Shown: positions 4,577-14,515, counted from the stretch's first letter. The stretch is 64,000 nt of DNA from Campylobacter concisus (GCF_003048375.1 NZ_CP021642.1:1556527-1620526); one strand, 5' to 3'. Program-made: numbers and translations. The notes: generated from the sequence alone by a model not told the origin.

Positions 4577-5092
4577 ATGCGAGCGCAGATAGAGCCTGAC
4601 TTTGAGAGTGCTAGAAAAAAGTATGATGAAATTTTGGAGCAAATTTTAGCCTACACCGACTATTGCGACGAATTTGGCGATGAGGACGGCGAAGAGTACC
4701 GCAAAGTAGAGCAGCGTCTAGCCAAGATAAGCGGCAAAGATATGAGTAAATTTAGCCTGCACGAGTGGTGGGAGGCCGAGGGCGCTGAAAATCTCGCCTT
4801 TGACATCGCTTTGCCAGAGCCAAAAGTGGTGGCTGACATAACAAAAGACGAGCTTAGCGAGATTGTGGAGCGCATGTTGGCGCCTACGCCTGAATTTGAA
4901 GATGATTTTTTAGAGGCATTTTACGCAAGAGTGACATTTGCTTGCAAGGGTGCTTATTTTGCAGAGTTTTTGAAGCTAAATTTTGCCAAAACCTTTAGCT
5001 TTGAGCTCTTTGAGCGCCGCGAGATAGAGGGCGTGATGCGTGAGCTAAGTGCTAACGAGATAGTAGAAATTTTATGGGGCAAAAGAGGATAA
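4577..5092 (+). CDS. acidic hypothetical protein (171 aa) packed between mraY and murD
   Basis: ORF with core-like codon usage. There are 4-nt gaps to the flanking genes. No family recognised. Confidence 0.55.
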   Translation: MRAQIEPDFESARKKYDEILEQILAYTDYCDEFGDEDGEEYRKVEQRLAKISGKDMSKFSLHEWWEAEGAENLAFDIALPEPKVVADITKDELSEIVERMLAPTPEFEDDFLEAFYARVTFACKGAYFAEFLKLNFAKTFSFELFERREIEGVMRELSANEIVEILWGKRG

Positions 5093-6314: not shown

Positions 6315-6427
6315 TTTTAAGCTATTTTTTAGATATTAGCGTTTTGTCTAAATTTTGCTACCAAAATTTAAAGAAAAAGCAAAAATTTTCTCTATAAGAG
6401 TTTTTTATTGAATACTTTTTAAGTTTA

Positions 6428-6436
6428 TGCTAATAT
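6428..6436 (+). promoter_or_regulatory. candidate extended -10 element (TGcTAATAT) for the island's first gene
   Basis: TG-n-TAATAT lies about 27 nt upstream of the ATG at 6464. RBS AAGGAAG is at 6451-6457. The intergenic region is AT-rich. Confidence 0.35.
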
Positions 6437-6463
6437 TTAGCGAAAAAATTAAGGAAGAATTTT

Positions 6464-9400
6464 ATGCCAATCACCCCTAGAAATGATGCAAATTTTAAAG
6501 AAAACTTAATAGATATCATCAAACTATCATATAGCGCCGACATCAATAAGCCTTTCATCTCTGGTGACAAGCTACTTATGGGCTATAGCTTTAGTCTAAA
6601 AGACGATCTAGACACGATATGCACTCAAATTTATGGTGCTAGCAAAGCAAAAGTGATCGAGGCTATTAGAAAAACCATAACCAACACTACAACAAAAACC
6701 GTGGTTTCAAAGATAGATGCAGAAAAGCTTTTTAACGATATAAATAATGCTGCAAGGGTTGCTTACGCAAAGGCATCTGGCAGCGCTGGCGCAGAGTTGC
6801 CTGAGTTTAAATTTAGCCAAGATGAGCAGTTAAATGCCATTTTAGAGTCAAAGCTAAAGCCACTAGCGGCTGATATAAAAGAGAAGCTAAGAGGCTCGTC
6901 GCTGGCAATTTTAGAAGAGGTCAAGCTCACTTCATATGTGGCGTCTAATGTTTCAAAAGAGCACGTCGCACTCCTAGCCCTGCTTCACATAAGTAGCAAG
7001 AAAAATATCGACCCAGCTTTAGCAAGCTATATCAAGAGCAAAAGTCGCTTTAAAGCGTGGTTTTGGCTTGCTTTCGAGAGCTTTAGCGGCGATAATCCAC
7101 ATAACCTTAAACTTTTAAGAAAAAAGATCTCAGCTCAGTTTGGCCTTTATGAGTCAGACGAAAACAACAAAGCTCTAAACGACACGTCTAGCGCGGCTAG
7201 CATGGAGCGCGTCAGCTTTGGTGAGTGCATAGATATCTTTACTCACCTAAATATCTCTAAAGCTATGTATGTAACAAAAGACAAAAACGGCAAAGAGCAC
7301 AAAGAAGACGTCACACACTTAGAATTTATGCAAAAAGACAAAGAGAGATCAAACAGCACCGATTCAAAGTGTGAGGGGCTGTTTAAGCCATTTGCTGATA
7401 AGCTAAATTCTCTTTTAGCCTCTCAAACATCAAAGAAATTTAGCACTGAAAATATCTACTGCGTAAATTTAACCTCCTCTTCTACGTCTAACGCTTCAAG
7501 GATAAATAAGCTCTTAAAAAGAAGAGAAGAAGAGCTTTATAAACAAGAGGATATGCTCATACTCTGCCCTATAAAGACTGCTACTCCTATTAGGATATTT
7601 CAGCCTAAAAAGAGCAACTTTACCATCGTGCTAGCCAGCCAAAGCGAATTTGACTGCAGCGAGCTAAACCCAAAAGAGCTAAATCCTAGCAGACCAAACT
7701 ATGGCAAGCTAAATTTATGCGAGCTAATACTCACTGACTTTAAATTTGACTCTTATGAGAAAGAGAACAAAGGCGCTTCAGCTGATAGAGATATCAAATT
7801 TAAAAACGCAAAGACAAAGTCAGATAGTGTGATCCTTTATAAAGAAAACGATGATGGCAAAGATGATAAAAACAAGACAAAGGGCGCTTGCTTTACTAGC
7901 ATAAGACAAAGTAGCGATGAGATAGAGTACAAGCTAGAAGATGGTGTCGTAAAGATGAGCCACTTCCCCCTCCCCTCATCTAAAGACGAATATCTAAATT
8001 TCAACCTTCTAAATTTCGCTAAGGAGAATAACTTTACCCTTAGAGATGATAAAGACTCAGCTATGTTTGATATGAAGCTTCGTCTAGCTCTTGGTAATAA
8101 TGCAGAACCTACATCAACATCTAGCTCAAGCCTTGCTCTAACACTAAATAATCTCATCATTGAAAACGAAAAAGGTGAAGCTAGTGATATAGATAAGATA
8201 TATCTTCACCACTGCGGTGATAAAAATATATATGAGAGTACATCTTTAGTTAAAAATAAAGACTCTGATATCAAAAACTCATATACAGCTACATTTAATA
8301 TCCCTATAGATAGAAATGACAAGAAAGATACTAAGCTTATAGTCTATTCAAGTGATCTAAGCAAAATTTATGATACCAAAGGGATACATGCCTACACTGG
8401 TACAGCTATCATATCTATAGGATATAAAGATAAAAGTGGTGGTAGCTTTAGCTATACAAACAAGGTATCTTTAAGAGATATAACAGATCATATAGTAAAT
8501 GTAGTCTCTGATAGTGAGTATCCATTTAAGACAAATGAAGAGATAAGTTTAAAGGCTATATATAAACAAGAAAAAGGTAGTAAGAGGTATAAAGAGGTAC
8601 TTTGGGGATATAAGGTCATAAAAACCATAGAGTATAACGAAGTATCTAAATCAAATCCTAAAGATGTGGTAGAGCTAAAAGATAAAAAGGGTAAAGAGAT
8701 AAGATTTAAAATTTCAGATCTTATAAAAAAAGATGATCTAGAGAGGCTAAAGCAAGGTGGTCATACTATAGTATTTTTTGCATATCTTGAAGGTGAGAGT
8801 GATAAATTTAAATATCAAAGCGTATATGGTAAAAACCATATAAGGATAGATATAAAGATACCTTTATATATTAAATTTAAAGATGATAAGCTCATCATAT
8901 ATGAGTTTGAGCATGCTATAAAAGAGAAGAGCTTTAAAGCTAGTCTAAATCATGATGATGCCTTAGTAAATAAAAGTGGCTACTTATATATAAATAAAGA
9001 TATGTCAGCACAGGATATAAATATCTATGAAGATGACAAACTTACTAAAGAGCTAAAGAGTGAAGATAGTACAAATAAGAGATATCAAATTTACATAGAT
9101 GAAGCAAATTCCACAAACAATCAAAACCCAAGCAACACAAACCAAACAGGTCAAACAAAGATAAACCAAGATACCAAGTATGGTATCAATCTACTAAGCA
9201 AAGATAATATGAATAGCTTTATCAACTCTTTTAATGAGTCAAAGAGCATAACAAGAGTAGATAAGGGTATGTGGGTGGATGGGGATAGAGAAGCAAATGT
9301 TTTAATAGAGATCAAAGACTATCCTTTTACGCTAAGTATGCTAAAGCAGGTATTTACCAATATAAAAACAAATCAAGAATATATCTTGCAAGAGATGGTG

Positions 9401-10099
9401 GATGAGTTAAATAGAAGAGATGATGAAGATGGAATTCAAATGTATGTAAAATATAAGCTTGATACTAGAAATAGATTGGAGCATTTTTTTGGGCAATGCT
9501 TTGTAGAGGCAAAGACAACAAAAGGTGATTTTACTTTAGAAGAAGAACTGGGGAAATTTACAGAGAATAATATAATTAGCCATAGAGGCAAAGCCAGATT
9601 AGAAGAAGCCAAAAAACTATATCCGCAATATTATGACAAGACAGATCCTTCAAAATGGGCAAAATTTGTTGGTAACGCTATGTACTCTGATCGTGGAAAG
9701 GGTTATTTGGGTAATGATGGTGGCGATGATGGATTTAATTTTAGAGGTAGAGGAATTAAGCAACTTACTGGAAAATTTAACTATAAAGATTTCAACAAAT
9801 ATGCGCATAATAATTATTGGCTAGATGAAGAAGTAAATTTTGTAAATTCACCAGATTTATTAATTTCAGATGGAAAATATGCTCTAGTCTCTGCTGCATA
9901 TTTTTGGACTATAGAAAGACCAAAGCCTAAAAAATATCGTCTTTATGAAATAGCTGATGAAAGTAAAGCAGATTCGGACAATAGCGATATAGTAGAACGT
10001 ATAACTGCTGTTATAAATCCACAAAAACTTAGTCTTGAGCAGAGAAAAGAAGCCTATAAACGCATAAAAACAGCAAATGTGTTTAAAATATTTCAGTAA
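6464..10099 (+). CDS. giant (1211 aa) protein with no signal peptide and a C-terminal GH19 family (chitinase/endolysin-type lysozyme) catalytic domain; putative secreted cell-wall hydrolase effector
   Basis: Long uninterrupted ORF with RBS. C-terminal residues match GH19 signatures from memory: HFFGQCFVEAK vs FLAQTSHETTG; RGRGIKQLTGKFNYKDF vs YGRGPIQLSWNYNYG; NSPDLLISDGKYALVSAAYFWTIERPKP vs [29 protein letters not shown]. The N-terminal ~960 aa are K/D/N-rich with no recognisable domain. Confidence 0.75.
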   Translation: MPITPRNDANFKENLIDIIKLSYSADINKPFISGDKLLMGYSFSLKDDLDTICTQIYGASKAKVIEAIRKTITNTTTKTVVSKIDAEKLFNDINNAARVAYAKASGSAGAELPEFKFSQDEQLNAILESKLKPLAADIKEKLRGSSLAILEEVKLTSYVASNVSKEHVALLALLHISSKKNIDPALASYIKSKSRFKAWFWLAFESFSGDNPHNLKLLRKKISAQFGLYESDENNKALNDTSSAASMERVSFGECIDIFTHLNISKAMYVTKDKNGKEHKEDVTHLEFMQKDKERSNSTDSKCEGLFKPFADKLNSLLASQTSKKFSTENIYCVNLTSSSTSNASRINKLLKRREEELYKQEDMLILCPIKTATPIRIFQPKKSNFTIVLASQSEFDCSELNPKELNPSRPNYGKLNLCELILTDFKFDSYEKENKGASADRDIKFKNAKTKSDSVILYKENDDGKDDKNKTKGACFTSIRQSSDEIEYKLEDGVVKMSHFPLPSSKDEYLNFNLLNFAKENNFTLRDDKDSAMFDMKLRLALGNNAEPTSTSSSSLALTLNNLIIENEKGEASDIDKIYLHHCGDKNIYESTSLVKNKDSDIKNSYTATFNIPIDRNDKKDTKLIVYSSDLSKIYDTKGIHAYTGTAIISIGYKDKSGGSFSYTNKVSLRDITDHIVNVVSDSEYPFKTNEEISLKAIYKQEKGSKRYKEVLWGYKVIKTIEYNEVSKSNPKDVVELKDKKGKEIRFKISDLIKKDDLERLKQGGHTIVFFAYLEGESDKFKYQSVYGKNHIRIDIKIPLYIKFKDDKLIIYEFEHAIKEKSFKASLNHDDALVNKSGYLYINKDMSAQDINIYEDDKLTKELKSEDSTNKRYQIYIDEANSTNNQNPSNTNQTGQTKINQDTKYGINLLSKDNMNSFINSFNESKSITRVDKGMWVDGDREANVLIEIKDYPFTLSMLKQVFTNIKTNQEYILQEMVDELNRRDDEDGIQMYVKYKLDTRNRLEHFFGQCFVEAKTTKGDFTLEEELGKFTENNIISHRGKARLEEAKKLYPQYYDKTDPSKWAKFVGNAMYSDRGKGYLGNDGGDDGFNFRGRGIKQLTGKFNYKDFNKYAHNNYWLDEEVNFVNSPDLLISDGKYALVSAAYFWTIERPKPKKYRLYEIADESKADSDNSDIVERITAVINPQKLSLEQRKEAYKRIKTANVFKIFQ

Positions 10100-10108
10100 G
10101 GGAATAGA

Positions 10109-10900
10109 ATGAAATTTAAAATTATATTGTTAGCCCTAATTGCTAGTTTAAATTTAAGCGCTTTTGAGCCTTTAACCCCTGAAAATGCTATCAATAAATT
10201 TAGTAATGATTTTTACCAACTAAATGATTATGATTCAAGCCCTTGGAGAGACTACGGTACAAAGAGTAAACCAAGCTTTGCTTGCTATGACACCAAAGGA
10301 AAGTATAAATTTAAAAAATACTCTTTAGAAGACTTTATATGCCAGTCAGACTATAACTCTTTTAGGGATAACTATTTTGCTGATATTTATAATCTAATAA
10401 TAAAAGAAGCTCCAAATTTAAAAGAAAAAGCTCAAAAGATAGCTAGAGATAGGATAGCTAAAACTCAAAAAGAGTGTATCAGATACTCCAAAAAAGAGTA
10501 TGACTATAGCTTTGTTGCTAAATCAGCATTTTTTGTATCTGAAAGTATCTACTGCATAAAGAATTTCTATAGAGAGTATACTGCTAAGCTATCTTTAATG
10601 CTTTACGAGAACGATAAAGAGCTATTTAGTAGAATTTACGGTGAAGATTACCACAAATTTAAAGAGGTATTTGAAGATACTTTAAAATATGTACCGATAG
10701 AAAATGGTAGCATGCCAAGAGATGTAAAAAGAACTGAAATAAACAATGACTTTTTACAAAAATACAAAAGTTACCACTATGATGACGACTACCCACAGAT
10801 AGATGACATGTTATATATCATGCTCGTGCAATACTCACTCATTGATAAAAATGGCCATTTAGTTTTACCTGAAAATAGAAAAAACGATGTCAAAAACTAG
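10109..10900 (+). CDS. exported hypothetical protein (263 aa), Cys-containing
   Basis: N-terminal signal-like segment MKFKIILLALIASLNLSAF. Starts 9 nt after the giant ORF's stop. Confidence 0.6.
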   Translation: MKFKIILLALIASLNLSAFEPLTPENAINKFSNDFYQLNDYDSSPWRDYGTKSKPSFACYDTKGKYKFKKYSLEDFICQSDYNSFRDNYFADIYNLIIKEAPNLKEKAQKIARDRIAKTQKECIRYSKKEYDYSFVAKSAFFVSESIYCIKNFYREYTAKLSLMLYENDKELFSRIYGEDYHKFKEVFEDTLKYVPIENGSMPRDVKRTEINNDFLQKYKSYHYDDDYPQIDDMLYIMLVQYSLIDKNGHLVLPENRKNDVKN

Positions 10901-11363
10901 ATTTTTATACTTATTGCTACTTTTAGCTATATTTTCTAATGCTCAAAACTTAAATATAGAAACATATAGCAAGGATAACAAATGCTCCATAAGCATAAAT
11001 GATGAAGAGATATATAGCAGAGAGTGCGAGTATGAGCTTGAACCAAATTTAATATTTTATACCAAAGTTAATAGCAGCGAAGTGTGGATATTTCAAGACA
11101 TACAAAACTATGCTGCTTGCAATGGACACGGGCCTTTGAGAATTTTTGAAAAGAAAGATGACGACAAGATAAAATTTCAAGGCGAGATAGATTGGTGCGC
11201 GGGTGTGCCATTTTTTGAAGTCAGTGATAGAGGCATCTTGATAATAGACAAACCACACAAAAATGCACTAACCAACAACGGCGACCCAAATTTTAAAGGT
11301 AGCGGGAAACTATCTGACGAAAGCAAATATAAATTTGAGAATGGAAAGATCAAAAAGATATAG
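10887..11363 (+). CDS. exported hypothetical protein (158 aa)
   Basis: Signal-like N-terminus MSKTRFLYLLLLLAIFSNAQN. Overlaps the upstream ORF by 14 nt. Confidence 0.55.
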   Translation: MSKTRFLYLLLLLAIFSNAQNLNIETYSKDNKCSISINDEEIYSRECEYELEPNLIFYTKVNSSEVWIFQDIQNYAACNGHGPLRIFEKKDDDKIKFQGEIDWCAGVPFFEVSDRGILIIDKPHKNALTNNGDPNFKGSGKLSDESKYKFENGKIKKI

Positions 11364-11415
11364 TTTTGCCTTTGTTAAATAGATATAATGCGGTTAAAAA
11401 AGCACGGACATAGGT

Positions 11416-11781
11416 ATGACAAACAAGATAGTTGTTTTTTATTTTATAGCACTAGGCTTTATAGCGCATAACGCCTACGCAAAAAATATAAATTTAACGG
11501 GGATTTACAAGAATGAGTCTTGTAATATTTCAATAGAAATAACGAAAAATACCAATAAAGCGAAGTATTTTTACAAGATAGTGGAGAATAATCAGACAAA
11601 ATCACAAGGCTATATATCAAGCATAAAAAGCAACGGCGAAGGTGGATTTTATATAAAATTAAAAAAGATTGACGGGATGTATGAAAATGGTAGCATAGTC
11701 ATACAAAACTACGGAAACTCTATGAGCAAGTATATTTATTTTGAAGATTGCGATAGTAAATACTTAAAATTTGATAAATGA
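11416..11781 (+). CDS. exported hypothetical protein (121 aa)
   Basis: Signal-like N-terminus MTNKIVVFYFIALGFIAHNAYA. Confidence 0.55.
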   Translation: MTNKIVVFYFIALGFIAHNAYAKNINLTGIYKNESCNISIEITKNTNKAKYFYKIVENNQTKSQGYISSIKSNGEGGFYIKLKKIDGMYENGSIVIQNYGNSMSKYIYFEDCDSKYLKFDK

Positions 11782-11836
11782 CCCAGTGTGTGATTTTGTA
11801 ATTACTATTTCGCAGTAAATTTTAAAAGAAAGAACT

Positions 11837-12319
11837 ATGGTAGTTTTTAGATTTTTTATTTTAATCAATTTATTCTTTGCATTTATCAAGGCTGATGAGT
11901 TCGGGTATTACTATGAAAATGAAAAATTTTTAATAGCTATTCTGATGTTCGAATGTGAGGGTGACATACATTGTACAAATGGTGGTTATTTTGGGGTAAA
12001 TAAAAGAAATAGCAAAAGTTTAGAAATTTTATCAAAACCAACACCAATAAAAAATAGTATAAATGAGCGCTTGATGGGGTATAAATTTAGAAATTCAAAC
12101 TACATGTATGAAATTTATGGCGACATAATGTCTGGTGGAAAAATGTATTTGAACGTTTTTAAGCAAGGAAAAACTATTTTTAAAAGCGATGATTTACAAC
12201 AGATAGAACAAGAAGAATTCCTATCCAAACTTAAAGAAATAGATAAAAGGCTACCTGTGAGCTTTGAAAAATTTTATAAGAAGCTACAAAACAAATACAA
12301 AAATGAAAACCATCAATAA
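11837..12319 (+). CDS. exported hypothetical protein (160 aa)
   Basis: Hydrophobic N-terminus MVVFRFFILINLFFAFIKA. Confidence 0.5.
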   Translation: MVVFRFFILINLFFAFIKADEFGYYYENEKFLIAILMFECEGDIHCTNGGYFGVNKRNSKSLEILSKPTPIKNSINERLMGYKFRNSNYMYEIYGDIMSGGKMYLNVFKQGKTIFKSDDLQQIEQEEFLSKLKEIDKRLPVSFEKFYKKLQNKYKNENHQ

Positions 12320-13010
12320 AATAATTCTTTTTTATCTAGTGCTATTTATGTCGCTAGCTCTTTTTGCAGAGCAAACCACCAAGCAGTGCTTTAGTAGATA
12401 TTTAGATAGCAAGGCTCATTTTATCAACGATGACAAATTTGATAAATTTGATTTTTATGGCATTATAGCTGACACTCGTACAAAATTTTTGGGCTATATC
12501 GGAGCTGATTATCACAGGCTACATATAAATTTTAACAGCGTCAAAAAGGTCTCAAAGACAAAATATATAGTATCTGGTGAATATAAAATAACCGCAGAGG
12601 CTCGCCCATTTAACGGCGAAATTCAAATAACCAAAATAAAAAAGTATATAAATTTAAACTACAGCGTTGATGACTTTATAAAAGGCAAGATCAAAGCCCA
12701 AGGCATAGCCTTAGCGAGCTATATCTTAAAAGGCGATGGAGGTTTTCAAGCCAAAGGTCAAATGCTCATAAAATGGTACATTAATAGCGATCAAAGACTA
12801 GCGTATGACGATATATCAGAAGATGAGGATATGTACGCAAATGATCTATTTTGTGGAGAGTGCAAGGTGGGCAAGGCGCAAGCAAAACCATGCGCATGGG
12901 GGCATTACAGGATACCAAACAGCGGCGATCTTGATGTGGGAGTTGGGGAATTTAGCCCCAATACAAAATATCTTAACAACGGCTGGAGCGACTTTAACAA
13001 GGATGAATAA
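12303..13010 (+). CDS. exported hypothetical protein (236 aa; start revised from 12264 to MKTINK)
   Basis: Signal-like ILFYLVLFMSLALFA. Overlaps the upstream ORF by 17 nt. Confidence 0.55.
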   Translation: MKTINKIILFYLVLFMSLALFAEQTTKQCFSRYLDSKAHFINDDKFDKFDFYGIIADTRTKFLGYIGADYHRLHINFNSVKKVSKTKYIVSGEYKITAEARPFNGEIQITKIKKYINLNYSVDDFIKGKIKAQGIALASYILKGDGGFQAKGQMLIKWYINSDQRLAYDDISEDEDMYANDLFCGECKVGKAQAKPCAWGHYRIPNSGDLDVGVGEFSPNTKYLNNGWSDFNKDE

Positions 13011-13542
13011 ATTTTCTATAAAAAGCTTTTTAATGCTATCTATAATTTTAGGCTTTCTAAATTTAGCTGCTAGCGAAAATTTACCACGCATAACGAGTGT
13101 AGATAATATCAAGGTTGGTAAAAAACTAGCTTTACATAACGTCAAATACTTCTTAGATGGCGAAAAGGCAAGCTTTATAAATTTAGACAAAACGCAAATA
13201 ATGACGCTTGATTTTTGCTGTGGAGGTAACGGCGAAATTCAAAGGATAAACGTCAAATTTTATGATAAAAATTTGACTAAAGATTATATAAATTTCAGCA
13301 AGATAAAAGAATTTACTACAAATTCTGGTATCAAGCTTGGCGACAAACAAGAGCAAATTTTAAATAAGCTAGGCAAGCCAAACGACCTACTAGAGGAAAA
13401 TGACACAACTACTGTTACCTATACCACCAAGCAAAGTAAGAGCCGCCTCTTGCAAGAATTTGACATGCCGCTCTACTATGAGAAATTTATCTTTTATGGC
13501 GATGTTTTAAAAGAGTATGAATTTGGCTTTGAGTATCCGTGA
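13003..13542 (+). CDS. exported hypothetical protein (179 aa; start revised to MNKFSIK)
   Basis: Signal-like SFLMLSIILGFLNLAAS. Overlaps the upstream ORF by 8 nt. The 12805 start in the ORF track overlaps the previous gene out of frame. Confidence 0.55.
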   Translation: MNKFSIKSFLMLSIILGFLNLAASENLPRITSVDNIKVGKKLALHNVKYFLDGEKASFINLDKTQIMTLDFCCGGNGEIQRINVKFYDKNLTKDYINFSKIKEFTTNSGIKLGDKQEQILNKLGKPNDLLEENDTTTVTYTTKQSKSRLLQEFDMPLYYEKFIFYGDVLKEYEFGFEYP

Positions 13543-13711
13543 TATAAAAAATAAATAGCAAAATAAGTTTAAGAAATATGCCTATTTTGCATATCAAATT
13601 TTAATTACAGTAACGTTTATTTCGTATCAAAATGCGTTTAAGCTTTTTGCTTTGTTTAAGCAAATTTTTACTACAATCCAAAATTAAATTTAGCTTTTTG
13701 GGCTATCATTT

Positions 13712-14515
13712 GTGAAAACTTCAAGGAGCAAGATGGAACCGATTTACAAAACGCAGATCATCAAATATAAAGGCGAGCAAAAAGCGCAAGTTGATGATAT
13801 CTTGGTGCGTGAGATCAAGCTTGAAATTTACATAAATGATAAAAAATTTGGTGCCGTTATGGCAACGCCAACTGATCAAAAGGCGCTTGCTGTAGGCTAT
13901 TTGATCAGCGAAAACGTCATCACAAAGCCAGAGGACATAACAGAAGTTAGGCTCTCAAGCGATGAGCTAAGCGTCTATGTAAGCGCCAAAGTGAACGAAA
14001 AGCGCCTAGAGCAGTTTGACGAAGAAAAGGTCATAATAAGTGGCTGCGGTAGAAGCTCAACGGCAAATATCGACCCACAGGCGATGGCAGCAAGAGCCGT
14101 AAAAAGCGGGGCTAAATTTAACAAAGATATGATCCTTGCTCAAATGAAGGAGTTTTACACGCAGTGCGAGCTTTACGAGATGACTGGCTGCGTGCATACG
14201 GCAAAGCTTTTTGTGAGCGAAGATAAATTTTACATAGGCGAGGATATAGCTCAGCACAACACGATCGATAAAGCCGTTGGCAAGGCTGTTTTAGACGGAG
14301 CTAACTTAGCAAATTCATTTTTAATGGTGAGTGGCAGGCTGAGTTCAGAGATGGTCGCAAAGGCTGTTATGCACGGCGTCCCAGCGCTTATCTCAAGGAC
14401 AGCGCCAACTAGCCTTGGCGTAGTGATCGCTCGTAAATTTGAGCTTACACTTTGTGGCTTTGCAAGGGGCGAAAATATCAACGTTTATAGCGGCGAAGAG
14501 AGAATTTATGAGTAA
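13712..14515 (+). CDS. fdhD: formate dehydrogenase accessory sulfurtransferase FdhD-like
   Basis: About 260 aa with the SGCGRSS Cys loop and overall FdhD-like layout. Confidence 0.6.
   Translation: MKTSRSKMEPIYKTQIIKYKGEQKAQVDDILVREIKLEIYINDKKFGAVMATPTDQKALAVGYLISENVITKPEDITEVRLSSDELSVYVSAKVNEKRLEQFDEEKVIISGCGRSSTANIDPQAMAARAVKSGAKFNKDMILAQMKEFYTQCELYEMTGCVHTAKLFVSEDKFYIGEDIAQHNTIDKAVGKAVLDGANLANSFLMVSGRLSSEMVAKAVMHGVPALISRTAPTSLGVVIARKFELTLCGFARGENINVYSGEERIYE

Follow-up and report, generated by a model that had tools for sequence, protein, structure and literature searches.

The locus described here occupies positions 6315-13711 of a 64,000-nucleotide (nt) window of Campylobacter concisus DNA, with all coordinates counted from the start of that window. 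It holds seven open reading frames (ORFs) on the same strand, the first encoding a protein of 1211 amino acids (aa) and the other six encoding small proteins, here called o2 to o7. We propose that these genes make up a polymorphic toxin-immunity system of this species, consisting of a type VI secretion system (T6SS) cargo effector and an array of immunity genes, and we assign this interpretation a probability of roughly 0.7. The locus is bordered on its left by murD (TIGR01087, E 4e-99) and on its right by fdhD (NF001943, E 3e-94). A first-pass annotation of this DNA had reported a giant first ORF, six small followers and overlapping stop/start junctions. Our analysis recovered all seven genes as described, together with overlaps of 14 nt between o2 and o3, 17 nt between o5 and o6 and 8 nt between o6 and o7. 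The start of o2 lies 10 nt downstream of the toxin gene. The sixth ORF is open from 12264, with a probable ATG at 12303 (235 aa), and the seventh is open from 12805, with a probable ATG at 13003 (179 aa). The features assigned to the locus are as follows.

6464..10099, +, polymorphic toxin gene, with a product of 1211 aa that lacks a signal peptide; homologues 62-99% identical over aa 1-~941, with unrelated C-termini
6464..7243, +, N-terminal GH24/T4-lysozyme-like domain, apparently catalytically dead (aa 1-~260)
7244..8953, +, central beta-rich carrier of tandem immunoglobulin/fibronectin type III (Ig/FN3)-like sandwiches (aa ~261-830; secondary structure from an AlphaFold2 (AF2) model), proposed VgrG-loading module
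8954..9265, +, low-confidence linker and conserved pre-toxin helix (helix aa 913-930, GINLLSKDNMNSFINSFNESK)
9266..9286, +, junction motif GMWVDGD (aa 935-941), border of conserved and variable parts
9287..10099, +, predicted GH19-type peptidoglycan glycosidase toxin domain (aa 942-1211)
10109..10900, +, o2, 263 aa, signal peptide, 4 Cys; candidate cognate immunity to the GH19 tip
10887..11363, +, o3, 158 aa, signal peptide; orphan immunity candidate for a lytic-transglycosylase tip
11416..11781, +, o4, 121 aa, signal peptide, no family match; orphan immunity candidate with no assigned partner toxin
11837..12319, +, o5, 160 aa, signal peptide, no family match; orphan immunity candidate with no assigned partner toxin
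12303..13010, +, o6, 235 aa, signal peptide, 4 Cys; orphan immunity candidate for a DUF5675 tip
13003..13542, +, o7, 179 aa, signal peptide; orphan immunity candidate for a YkuD-like tip

The large protein has no hydrophobic N-terminus, its maximum over a 12-residue Kyte-Doolittle window being 0.82, which agrees with the earlier statement that it lacks a signal peptide. Searches of all seven proteins against Pfam, NCBIfam and PHROGs gave a GH19/endolysin signal at the C-terminus of the large protein and nothing else. The weak matches that the small ORFs gave, among them CfaA_B_C, COX16 and Ribophorin, all lay under the cut-off and were dismissed as chance. The GH19 domain named in the first-pass annotation falls short of the Pfam threshold (E 0.014, 15.6 versus 25.5 bits), yet it is supported by matches to the GH19-type endolysin of PDB entry 4ok7 (E 1e-9) and to the PHROG endolysin phrog_181 (E 3.5e-24; endolysin/chitinase families). 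The Glu of a GQCxVE motif (aa 1015) is invariant across GH19 subtypes, E1028 aligns with a Glu of 4ok7, and NCBI labels the homologues 'glycoside hydrolase family 19 protein'.

The N-terminal domain has a lysozyme fold of the GH24/T4-lysozyme family. When aligned with a T4 lysozyme reference sequence, the E11/D20/T26 triad of that enzyme corresponds to Y23/S33/L38 in the window protein, whereas the E/D/T residues are retained in the distant homologues P0127, P0128, P0144, P0145 and P0148 (P numbers denote homologous proteins and L numbers denote loci). The N-terminal lysozyme domain of the window protein therefore looks catalytically dead. The central region gave generic Ig-like matches alone when compared by Foldseek with PDB and BFVD, and the carrier has no match in Pfam or NCBIfam. 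In the AF2 model, the predicted local confidence (pLDDT) drops below 50 at aa 828-849 and 867-909, and a helix follows at aa 913-930. The corresponding GINLL...FNE.K element also precedes the C-termini of P0127 and P0129.

What identifies this gene as a polymorphic toxin is the behaviour of its 3' end. A homologue search returned 313 proteins at E <= 0.001. Among the 120 listed, the first ~78% of the protein (aa 1-~941) is 62-99% identical to the window protein, and the C-termini are GH19, M23, CHAP, GH24, DUF5675, others or nothing at all. An alignment of twelve representatives breaks abruptly after ...SITRVDKGMWVDGD (aa 935-941), and the sequence GMW(V/E)DGD stands before every one of the 33 C-terminal modules that 35 loci contain, orphan modules included. 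There are at least seven families of these tips: GH19, M23 (Pfam E 1e-9), CHAP (Pfam E 1e-10), DUF5675 (Pfam E 3e-19), a GH24 lambda-type lysozyme (PDB 3d3d/1am7, E 1.5e-13), a lytic transglycosylase (PDB 9udh, E 1.4e-65) and a YkuD-like L,D-transpeptidase of 160-163 aa that is weakly matched (E 0.006). Distant family members carry further tips, namely an N-acetylmuramidase (PF11860) and Tlde1. Judged by these family assignments, all identifiable tips act on peptidoglycan. A shared N-terminus joined at a sharp boundary to unrelated C-terminal toxins is the arrangement expected of a polymorphic toxin. The suggestion of a cell-wall-degrading toxin, first made for this one protein, thus gains weight from a shared 941-residue N-terminus that ends in varied peptidoglycan hydrolases.

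As a separate observation, the lytic-transglycosylase tip of one strain (L017, 12740-13273) matches 9udh, a 164-aa 'lytic transglycosidase', over its full length at about 70% identity by eye. Our literature search found no paper for 9udh, and a relative of this system may already be under study elsewhere.

The position of the gene is as constant as its tip is variable. A scan of one genome per GTDB species yielded 32 loci, each with a label of C. concisus or of uncultured Campylobacter/Campylobacteraceae. In 29/29 loci with upstream sequence (L003-L034), murD is followed directly by the full-length gene, and downstream gene content differs between strains. The interval has a GC content of 0.329 as against 0.41 in the remaining window, and its genes range from 0.275 to 0.37, compared with a mean of 0.415 +/- 0.034 for the window's other genes. 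However, GC content is ordinary (0.41) over codons 1-260 of the large ORF, and thus the low-GC stretch begins within this ORF. The AT-richness noted in the first-pass annotation is therefore real but does not extend to the start of the gene. The idea of an accessory island needs a similar division. Given its occurrence behind murD in every locus that could be judged, the position and the first ~941 codons are species-wide, and strain-specific content is confined to the toxin tip and the complement of small genes. From these comparisons, the locus is best described as a hypervariable locus fixed beside murD rather than a strain-specific inserted island.

Many strains also carry 5'-truncated copies of the toxin gene downstream of the full-length one (L001, L003, L005, L012, L013, L034, L038 and L039). 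These copies start near aa 271, 495, 559 or 860, and each keeps the junction motif, a distinct warhead and its own small next gene. Downstream orphan cassettes and orphan immunity genes of this kind are a further mark of polymorphic toxin loci. In the window, no toxin-gene fragments were found downstream, and orphan immunity candidates alone (o3-o7) are present.

Two explanations that do without a toxin should be weighed against these data. The first is that the large protein is a housekeeping enzyme for cell-wall remodelling that belongs to the mraY-murD cluster, with the small exported proteins serving as its regulators or inhibitors. Its constant place after murD would suit such a role, as would the fact that the enzymatic tips all target peptidoglycan. 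However, the large protein has no export signal, its tips swap between glycosidases, endopeptidases and amidases among close strains, and 5'-truncated orphan copies together with immunity arrays are hallmarks of conflict systems. The atypical GC content and the vgrG-linked homologues described below also speak against this explanation, and we consider it improbable. The second is that the locus is the remnant of a prophage lysis gene or virion-associated lysin, with an endolysin fused to a structural protein. The C-terminal domain does match phage endolysins in PHROGs and PDB, a phage internal protein (9k2v) is similar to the lytic-transglycosylase tip, and Ig-like folds such as those of the central region occur in some tail proteins. 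Against this, neither the N-terminal 930 residues nor any of the six small ORFs has a counterpart in PHROGs, matches in BFVD are of a generic kind (TM <= 0.1), the locus has no other phage genes, integrase or att-like repeats, and it occupies one fixed chromosomal site across the species. We regard a phage origin of this sort as even less credible than a housekeeping role.

A further argument for toxin and immunity comes from the gene that follows each tip. All six small ORFs of the window begin with 1-3 K/R residues followed by a 12-residue segment with a Kyte-Doolittle value of 2.5-2.9, in keeping with the Sec-type N-termini attributed to them earlier, and each has an even number of Cys residues. 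When the warheads of all loci were clustered and compared with the clustered next ORFs, the following pairs emerged.

GH19 tip: next ORF o2, 14/14 scorable cases
M23 tip: next ORF a 156-aa family (cl5), often in 2-3 tandem copies, 5/5
CHAP tip: next ORF a 142-aa family (cl23), 4/4
DUF5675 tip: next ORF o6, 4/4 (L006, L009, L015, L017)
YkuD-like tip: next ORF o7, 3/4, the fourth case being a truncated copy
GH24 tip: next ORF a 183-aa family (cl31), 2/2
Lytic-transglycosylase tip: next ORF o3, 1/1

The downstream gene therefore co-varies with the toxin type in a one-to-one manner, as expected for polymorphic toxins. Each ORF paired with an identified tip encodes a signal peptide, and its Cys residues are even in number. 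Variation within o2 also follows the GH19 subtype in its variable segments: where the tip is >=93% identical, o2 is 87-88% identical, and where the tip is 45-62% identical, o2 is 57-61% identical. Given the pairing and this tracking of subtype, o2 is likely the cognate immunity gene of the GH19 tip. The o2 family comprises 814 clusters at 90% identity, none of which is named. Three of the remaining small ORFs are candidate orphan immunity genes for warheads that the window strain does not encode: o6 and o7 follow the DUF5675 and YkuD-like tips, and o3 is the first gene 3' of a lytic-transglycosylase-type tip in L015 and L017. The o3-o4 block co-occurs in seven loci (L003, L011, L012, L015, L017, L025 and L038), and o5 belongs to the same block. 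Thus, the earlier proposal of periplasmic immunity and orphan immunity genes fits well with the finding of one exported ORF family per tip, and with o3, o6 and o7 standing first after tips that are missing from the window.

The M23 immunity candidate (~156 aa) differs from the other candidates in that it usually occurs as two or three diverged tandem copies (L016 13387-14330; L022 13578-15006; L005 16862-18290). We also compared o2 with the LprI/DUF1311 family, to which it has no Pfam match and no statistically supported resemblance; in an hhalign comparison of o2 with the LprI-like genes of L035 and L036, a PSFxC...E..IC...D.Y motif aligned at a probability of just 4%. A profile search of o2 against PDB gave spurious ribosomal S3Ae matches alone.

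Evidence on delivery comes from distant relatives of the large protein. The carrier family is small, with 43 representatives among 1.84 billion proteins, and all five distant members on contigs that allow a judgement (P0127, P0129, P0169, P0145 and P0146) lie directly 3' of vgrG. P0127, a protein with 37% identity over aa 1-930, an intact lysozyme triad and an M23 tip, is encoded in the order TssC-TssB-TssA-TssJ-TssK-TssL-Hcp-VgrG-[exported LprI-like 475 aa]-P0127-[exported 153 aa]. P0129, with a muramidase tip, and P0169, with a Tlde1-like tip, are located in a C. concisus vgrG island, and aa 240-935 of the window protein match P0129 at E 3e-91. In C. coli, P0145 comes after TssE-TssF-TssG-VgrG, and a multi-vgrG island of Helicobacter cinaedi contains P0146; immediately upstream of each is a gene for an exported LprI-like protein, and BLASTP matches them to the window protein over aa ~186-680 (E 3e-34 and 3e-37, respectively). 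The lack of an upstream LprI gene at the window locus is consistent with the dead triad of its N-terminal lysozyme domain. Tlde1, whose relatives form the tips of P0133 and P0169, is a T6SS effector domain. According to published work, 14/16 complete genomes of C. concisus encode a T6SS and the species secretes Hcp (PMC7725323, PMC9676060); this is knowledge at the level of the species, the window covering 64 kb of its own strain. Because the distant homologues are linked to vgrG and the species has a T6SS with secreted Hcp, the window protein is, by inference, an orphan cargo effector of the T6SS, although this is an association and not proof.

It is important to note that several findings weigh against this interpretation. 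A vgrG, hcp, PAAR or adaptor gene is found as a neighbour for the five homologues, but none lies beside the window locus or among the window's ten largest other ORFs, which are housekeeping genes. The first-pass annotation was thus right that no T6SS gene is visible near the locus, and it is its further view of the delivery route as unknown that the vgrG-linked carrier homologues in T6SS clusters call into question. The gene is present in every lineage sampled, yet 2/16 complete genomes are without a T6SS. The carrier has no known T6SS loading motif (MIX, PAAR and WHxxxH are absent by motif scan, as are VENN and DPxGL), and the identity of the part that binds VgrG is a guess. On the immunity side, o2-like genes also follow M23 and GH24 immunity genes; we read these as orphans, but they could reflect a more general role of o2. 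Moreover, the AF2 model of o2 is poor (pLDDT 50) and unfit for a fold search.

Some of these difficulties would disappear if the protein were a T6SS-independent toxin resembling a bacteriocin such as pesticin or colicin M. It would leave its producer through lysis or in vesicles, bind an outer-membrane receptor through its beta-sandwiches and be imported into the periplasm of related strains, where periplasmic immunity proteins would protect. Such a toxin would account for both the absence of T6SS genes around the locus and the occurrence of the gene throughout the species. However, it would leave the position of all five judgeable homologues directly 3' of vgrG without explanation, and no lysis or release gene or TonB-box-like feature was recognised. 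The match to pesticin merely reflects a shared GH24 fold that is catalytically dead here. In pesticin (Yersinia pestis, with Pim immunity), the lysozyme is the active C-terminal warhead of a protein taken up through a receptor and TonB, unlike the N-terminal domain with a lost triad found here. We therefore judge a bacteriocin-like toxin to be unlikely, albeit the most serious of the competing explanations.

Two additional observations concern vgrG-linked loci. A second polymorphic locus of C. concisus (L041 526-9157; L044 866-11746) encodes a paralogous carrier that has a different N-terminus without a lysozyme-like domain and lies directly 3' of vgrG. Its tips are muramidase or Tlde1-like and are followed by 153-aa and 200-aa ORFs. 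In a C. coli T6SS island (L036), C-terminal fragments of vgrG (8477-8929, 150 aa; 12659-13279, 206 aa), near-identical to the corresponding part of the complete vgrG, lie on either side of the effector module, which suggests that vgrG C-termini and cargo are swapped together.

The protein architecture, the polymorphism, the one-to-one pairing of tips with next genes, the folds and the vgrG linkage of homologues are matters of observation, and these comparative data support the effector/immunity interpretation; toxicity, neutralisation, T6SS dependence and VgrG loading are what this interpretation predicts. We believe that the best reading is a polymorphic peptidoglycan hydrolase serving as a T6SS effector, which combines a carrier not described before with a locus where cassette switching is unusually clear. 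The 1211-aa protein would then consist of a conserved carrier (the dead GH24-like domain, the beta-sandwiches, a flexible linker and the pre-toxin helix), the GMWVDGD junction and a swappable GH19 warhead. Its beta-rich core would load the protein, which lacks a Sec signal, onto the VgrG spike, and the T6SS of the species would fire it into adjacent Gram-negative cells, in whose periplasm the warhead would cut the cell wall. Exported o2 would neutralise GH19 of the same subtype in the periplasm and thereby shield sister cells. Likewise, o3, o6 and o7 may neutralise the lytic-transglycosylase, DUF5675 and YkuD-like warheads encoded at this locus in other C. concisus strains, and such orphan immunity genes would let a strain survive attack by its own species. 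Warheads might be switched by recombination of the expressed gene with 5'-truncated orphan copies, which share the 3' part of the carrier and the junction motif. The window strain would have lost its orphan toxin copies and retained the immunities alone.

We also offer a broader proposal, which we think has an even chance of being correct. The beta-sandwich core of ~700 residues (aa ~240-935, up to the GINLL...FNE.K helix) could represent an undescribed class of T6SS loading domain restricted to the Campylobacterota. The C. concisus copy would have left a vgrG island, lost its lysozyme blade and become a platform beside murD that swaps at least seven warheads at GMWVDGD, with immunity arrays that record which conspecific weapons can be survived. 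Such a carrier class may play a role like that of MIX, FIX, RIX or WHIX without any sequence relation to them.

Among known systems, the closest in design are the polymorphic 'double-blade' effectors of the WHIX class, which are T6SS cargo (Fridman et al. 2025, PMC12135965). Chitinase-like tips, a class including GH19, are the commonest there, alongside tips of the lambda-lysozyme-like, muramidase, NlpC/P60 and lytic-transglycosylase kinds. Some WHIX effectors have a second, N-terminal peptidoglycan-targeting domain, they are loaded on the C-terminus of the adjacent VgrG, and their flanking immunity genes encode signal peptides and include DUF1311/LprI (PMC12135965). Both groups thus comprise large cargo effectors with a central secretion or loading domain and swappable C-terminal toxins that target peptidoglycan, and the relative P0127 even has the same layout, VgrG-LprI-[lysozyme-carrier-M23]-immunity. 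However, neither the window protein nor any family member scanned with a regular expression contains WHxxxH, and the carrier is a string of beta-sandwiches whereas the WHIX module has a deep cavity. The window protein further differs in its dead N-terminal blade, in the separation of its gene from vgrG and in the orphan toxin/immunity arrays. Neither Campylobacter nor Helicobacter is mentioned in the WHIX paper (PMC12135965).

The genetic organization resembles that of Rhs, contact-dependent inhibition (CDI; CdiA-CT) and MafB systems, in which a conserved N-terminus, a short junction motif and an immunity gene immediately downstream of the toxin are accompanied by downstream 5'-truncated toxin-immunity modules able to recombine into the expressed gene and by orphan immunity arrays. 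The window protein differs from these toxins in having no Rhs/YD repeats, PAAR, VENN or DPxGL, no two-partner secretion (TPS) or signal domain and no match to them in Pfam. Its toxins are also predicted to act on periplasmic peptidoglycan rather than in the cytoplasm, which would explain why the immunity proteins are exported. T6SS effectors against peptidoglycan such as Tae, Tge and Tlde1 are mostly small, single-domain proteins. Together with their immunity proteins Tai, Tgi and Tldi, they provide the nearest parallel in target, as they attack amide, peptide and glycan bonds of murein and are countered in the periplasm; the Tlde1-like tips noted above add to this likeness. By contrast, the hydrolase here sits at the end of a carrier of ~940 aa, and at this single locus it is exchanged among at least seven families.

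C. concisus, a bacterium of the mouth and gut, has been linked to inflammatory bowel disease. We found no paper in the literature that assigns an antibacterial effector or immunity gene to its functional T6SS, and none that describes the toxin locus beside murD. Public annotation labels these genes 'GH19 protein', 'M23 peptidase' or 'hypothetical', with NCBI naming them by the tip alone. If our interpretation is correct, the locus would be the main determinant of strain-versus-strain compatibility in this species, and the combination of warhead and immunity set could serve as a typing marker. It would also amount to a naturally occurring collection of at least seven peptidoglycan hydrolases, each with a matching inhibitor. 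Furthermore, the carrier would provide a new domain by which to recognise T6SS effectors of Campylobacter and Helicobacter, given that known effector motifs are missing from this family.

Minor features of the locus and its surroundings complete the description. An exact-sequence lookup with the 1211-aa protein matched no record, and a scan for promoters and terminators gave a number of sites not above chance expectation. On the opposite strand, at 58316-60544 of the window, a 742-aa ORF with no Pfam match at E <= 1e-5 lies among genes that are otherwise of the housekeeping kind. On its right side (13543-14515), the locus ends in a synteny break relative to L005, L012, L015-L017 and L019 and to L009, L002 and L039. 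The window array stops at fdhD; elsewhere, arrays stop at apparent lipooligosaccharide (LOS)/glycosyltransferase genes, recognised by N-terminal sequences alone, or at a pair of genes for 625-aa and ~1765-aa proteins. None of these right-flank genes of other strains (the apparent LOS/glycosyltransferase cluster or the 625-aa and 1764-aa proteins) is present in the 64-kb window. The latter pair, 624-626 aa and ~1764 aa long, ends the toxin array in L009 (14769-22010), L039 (14822-19715) and L002 (13347-19372); the two proteins have no family match but share similar N-termini ('IKDIQGE.../IKKIKGE...'). On the left side, an acidic 171-aa ORF (4577-5092, +) with no Pfam, NCBIfam or PHROG match lies between mraY and murD. 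This ORF is kept in loci whose carrier is ~87-95% identical to that of the window and is missing from those with the ~62-68% carrier type, in which mraY directly abuts murD.

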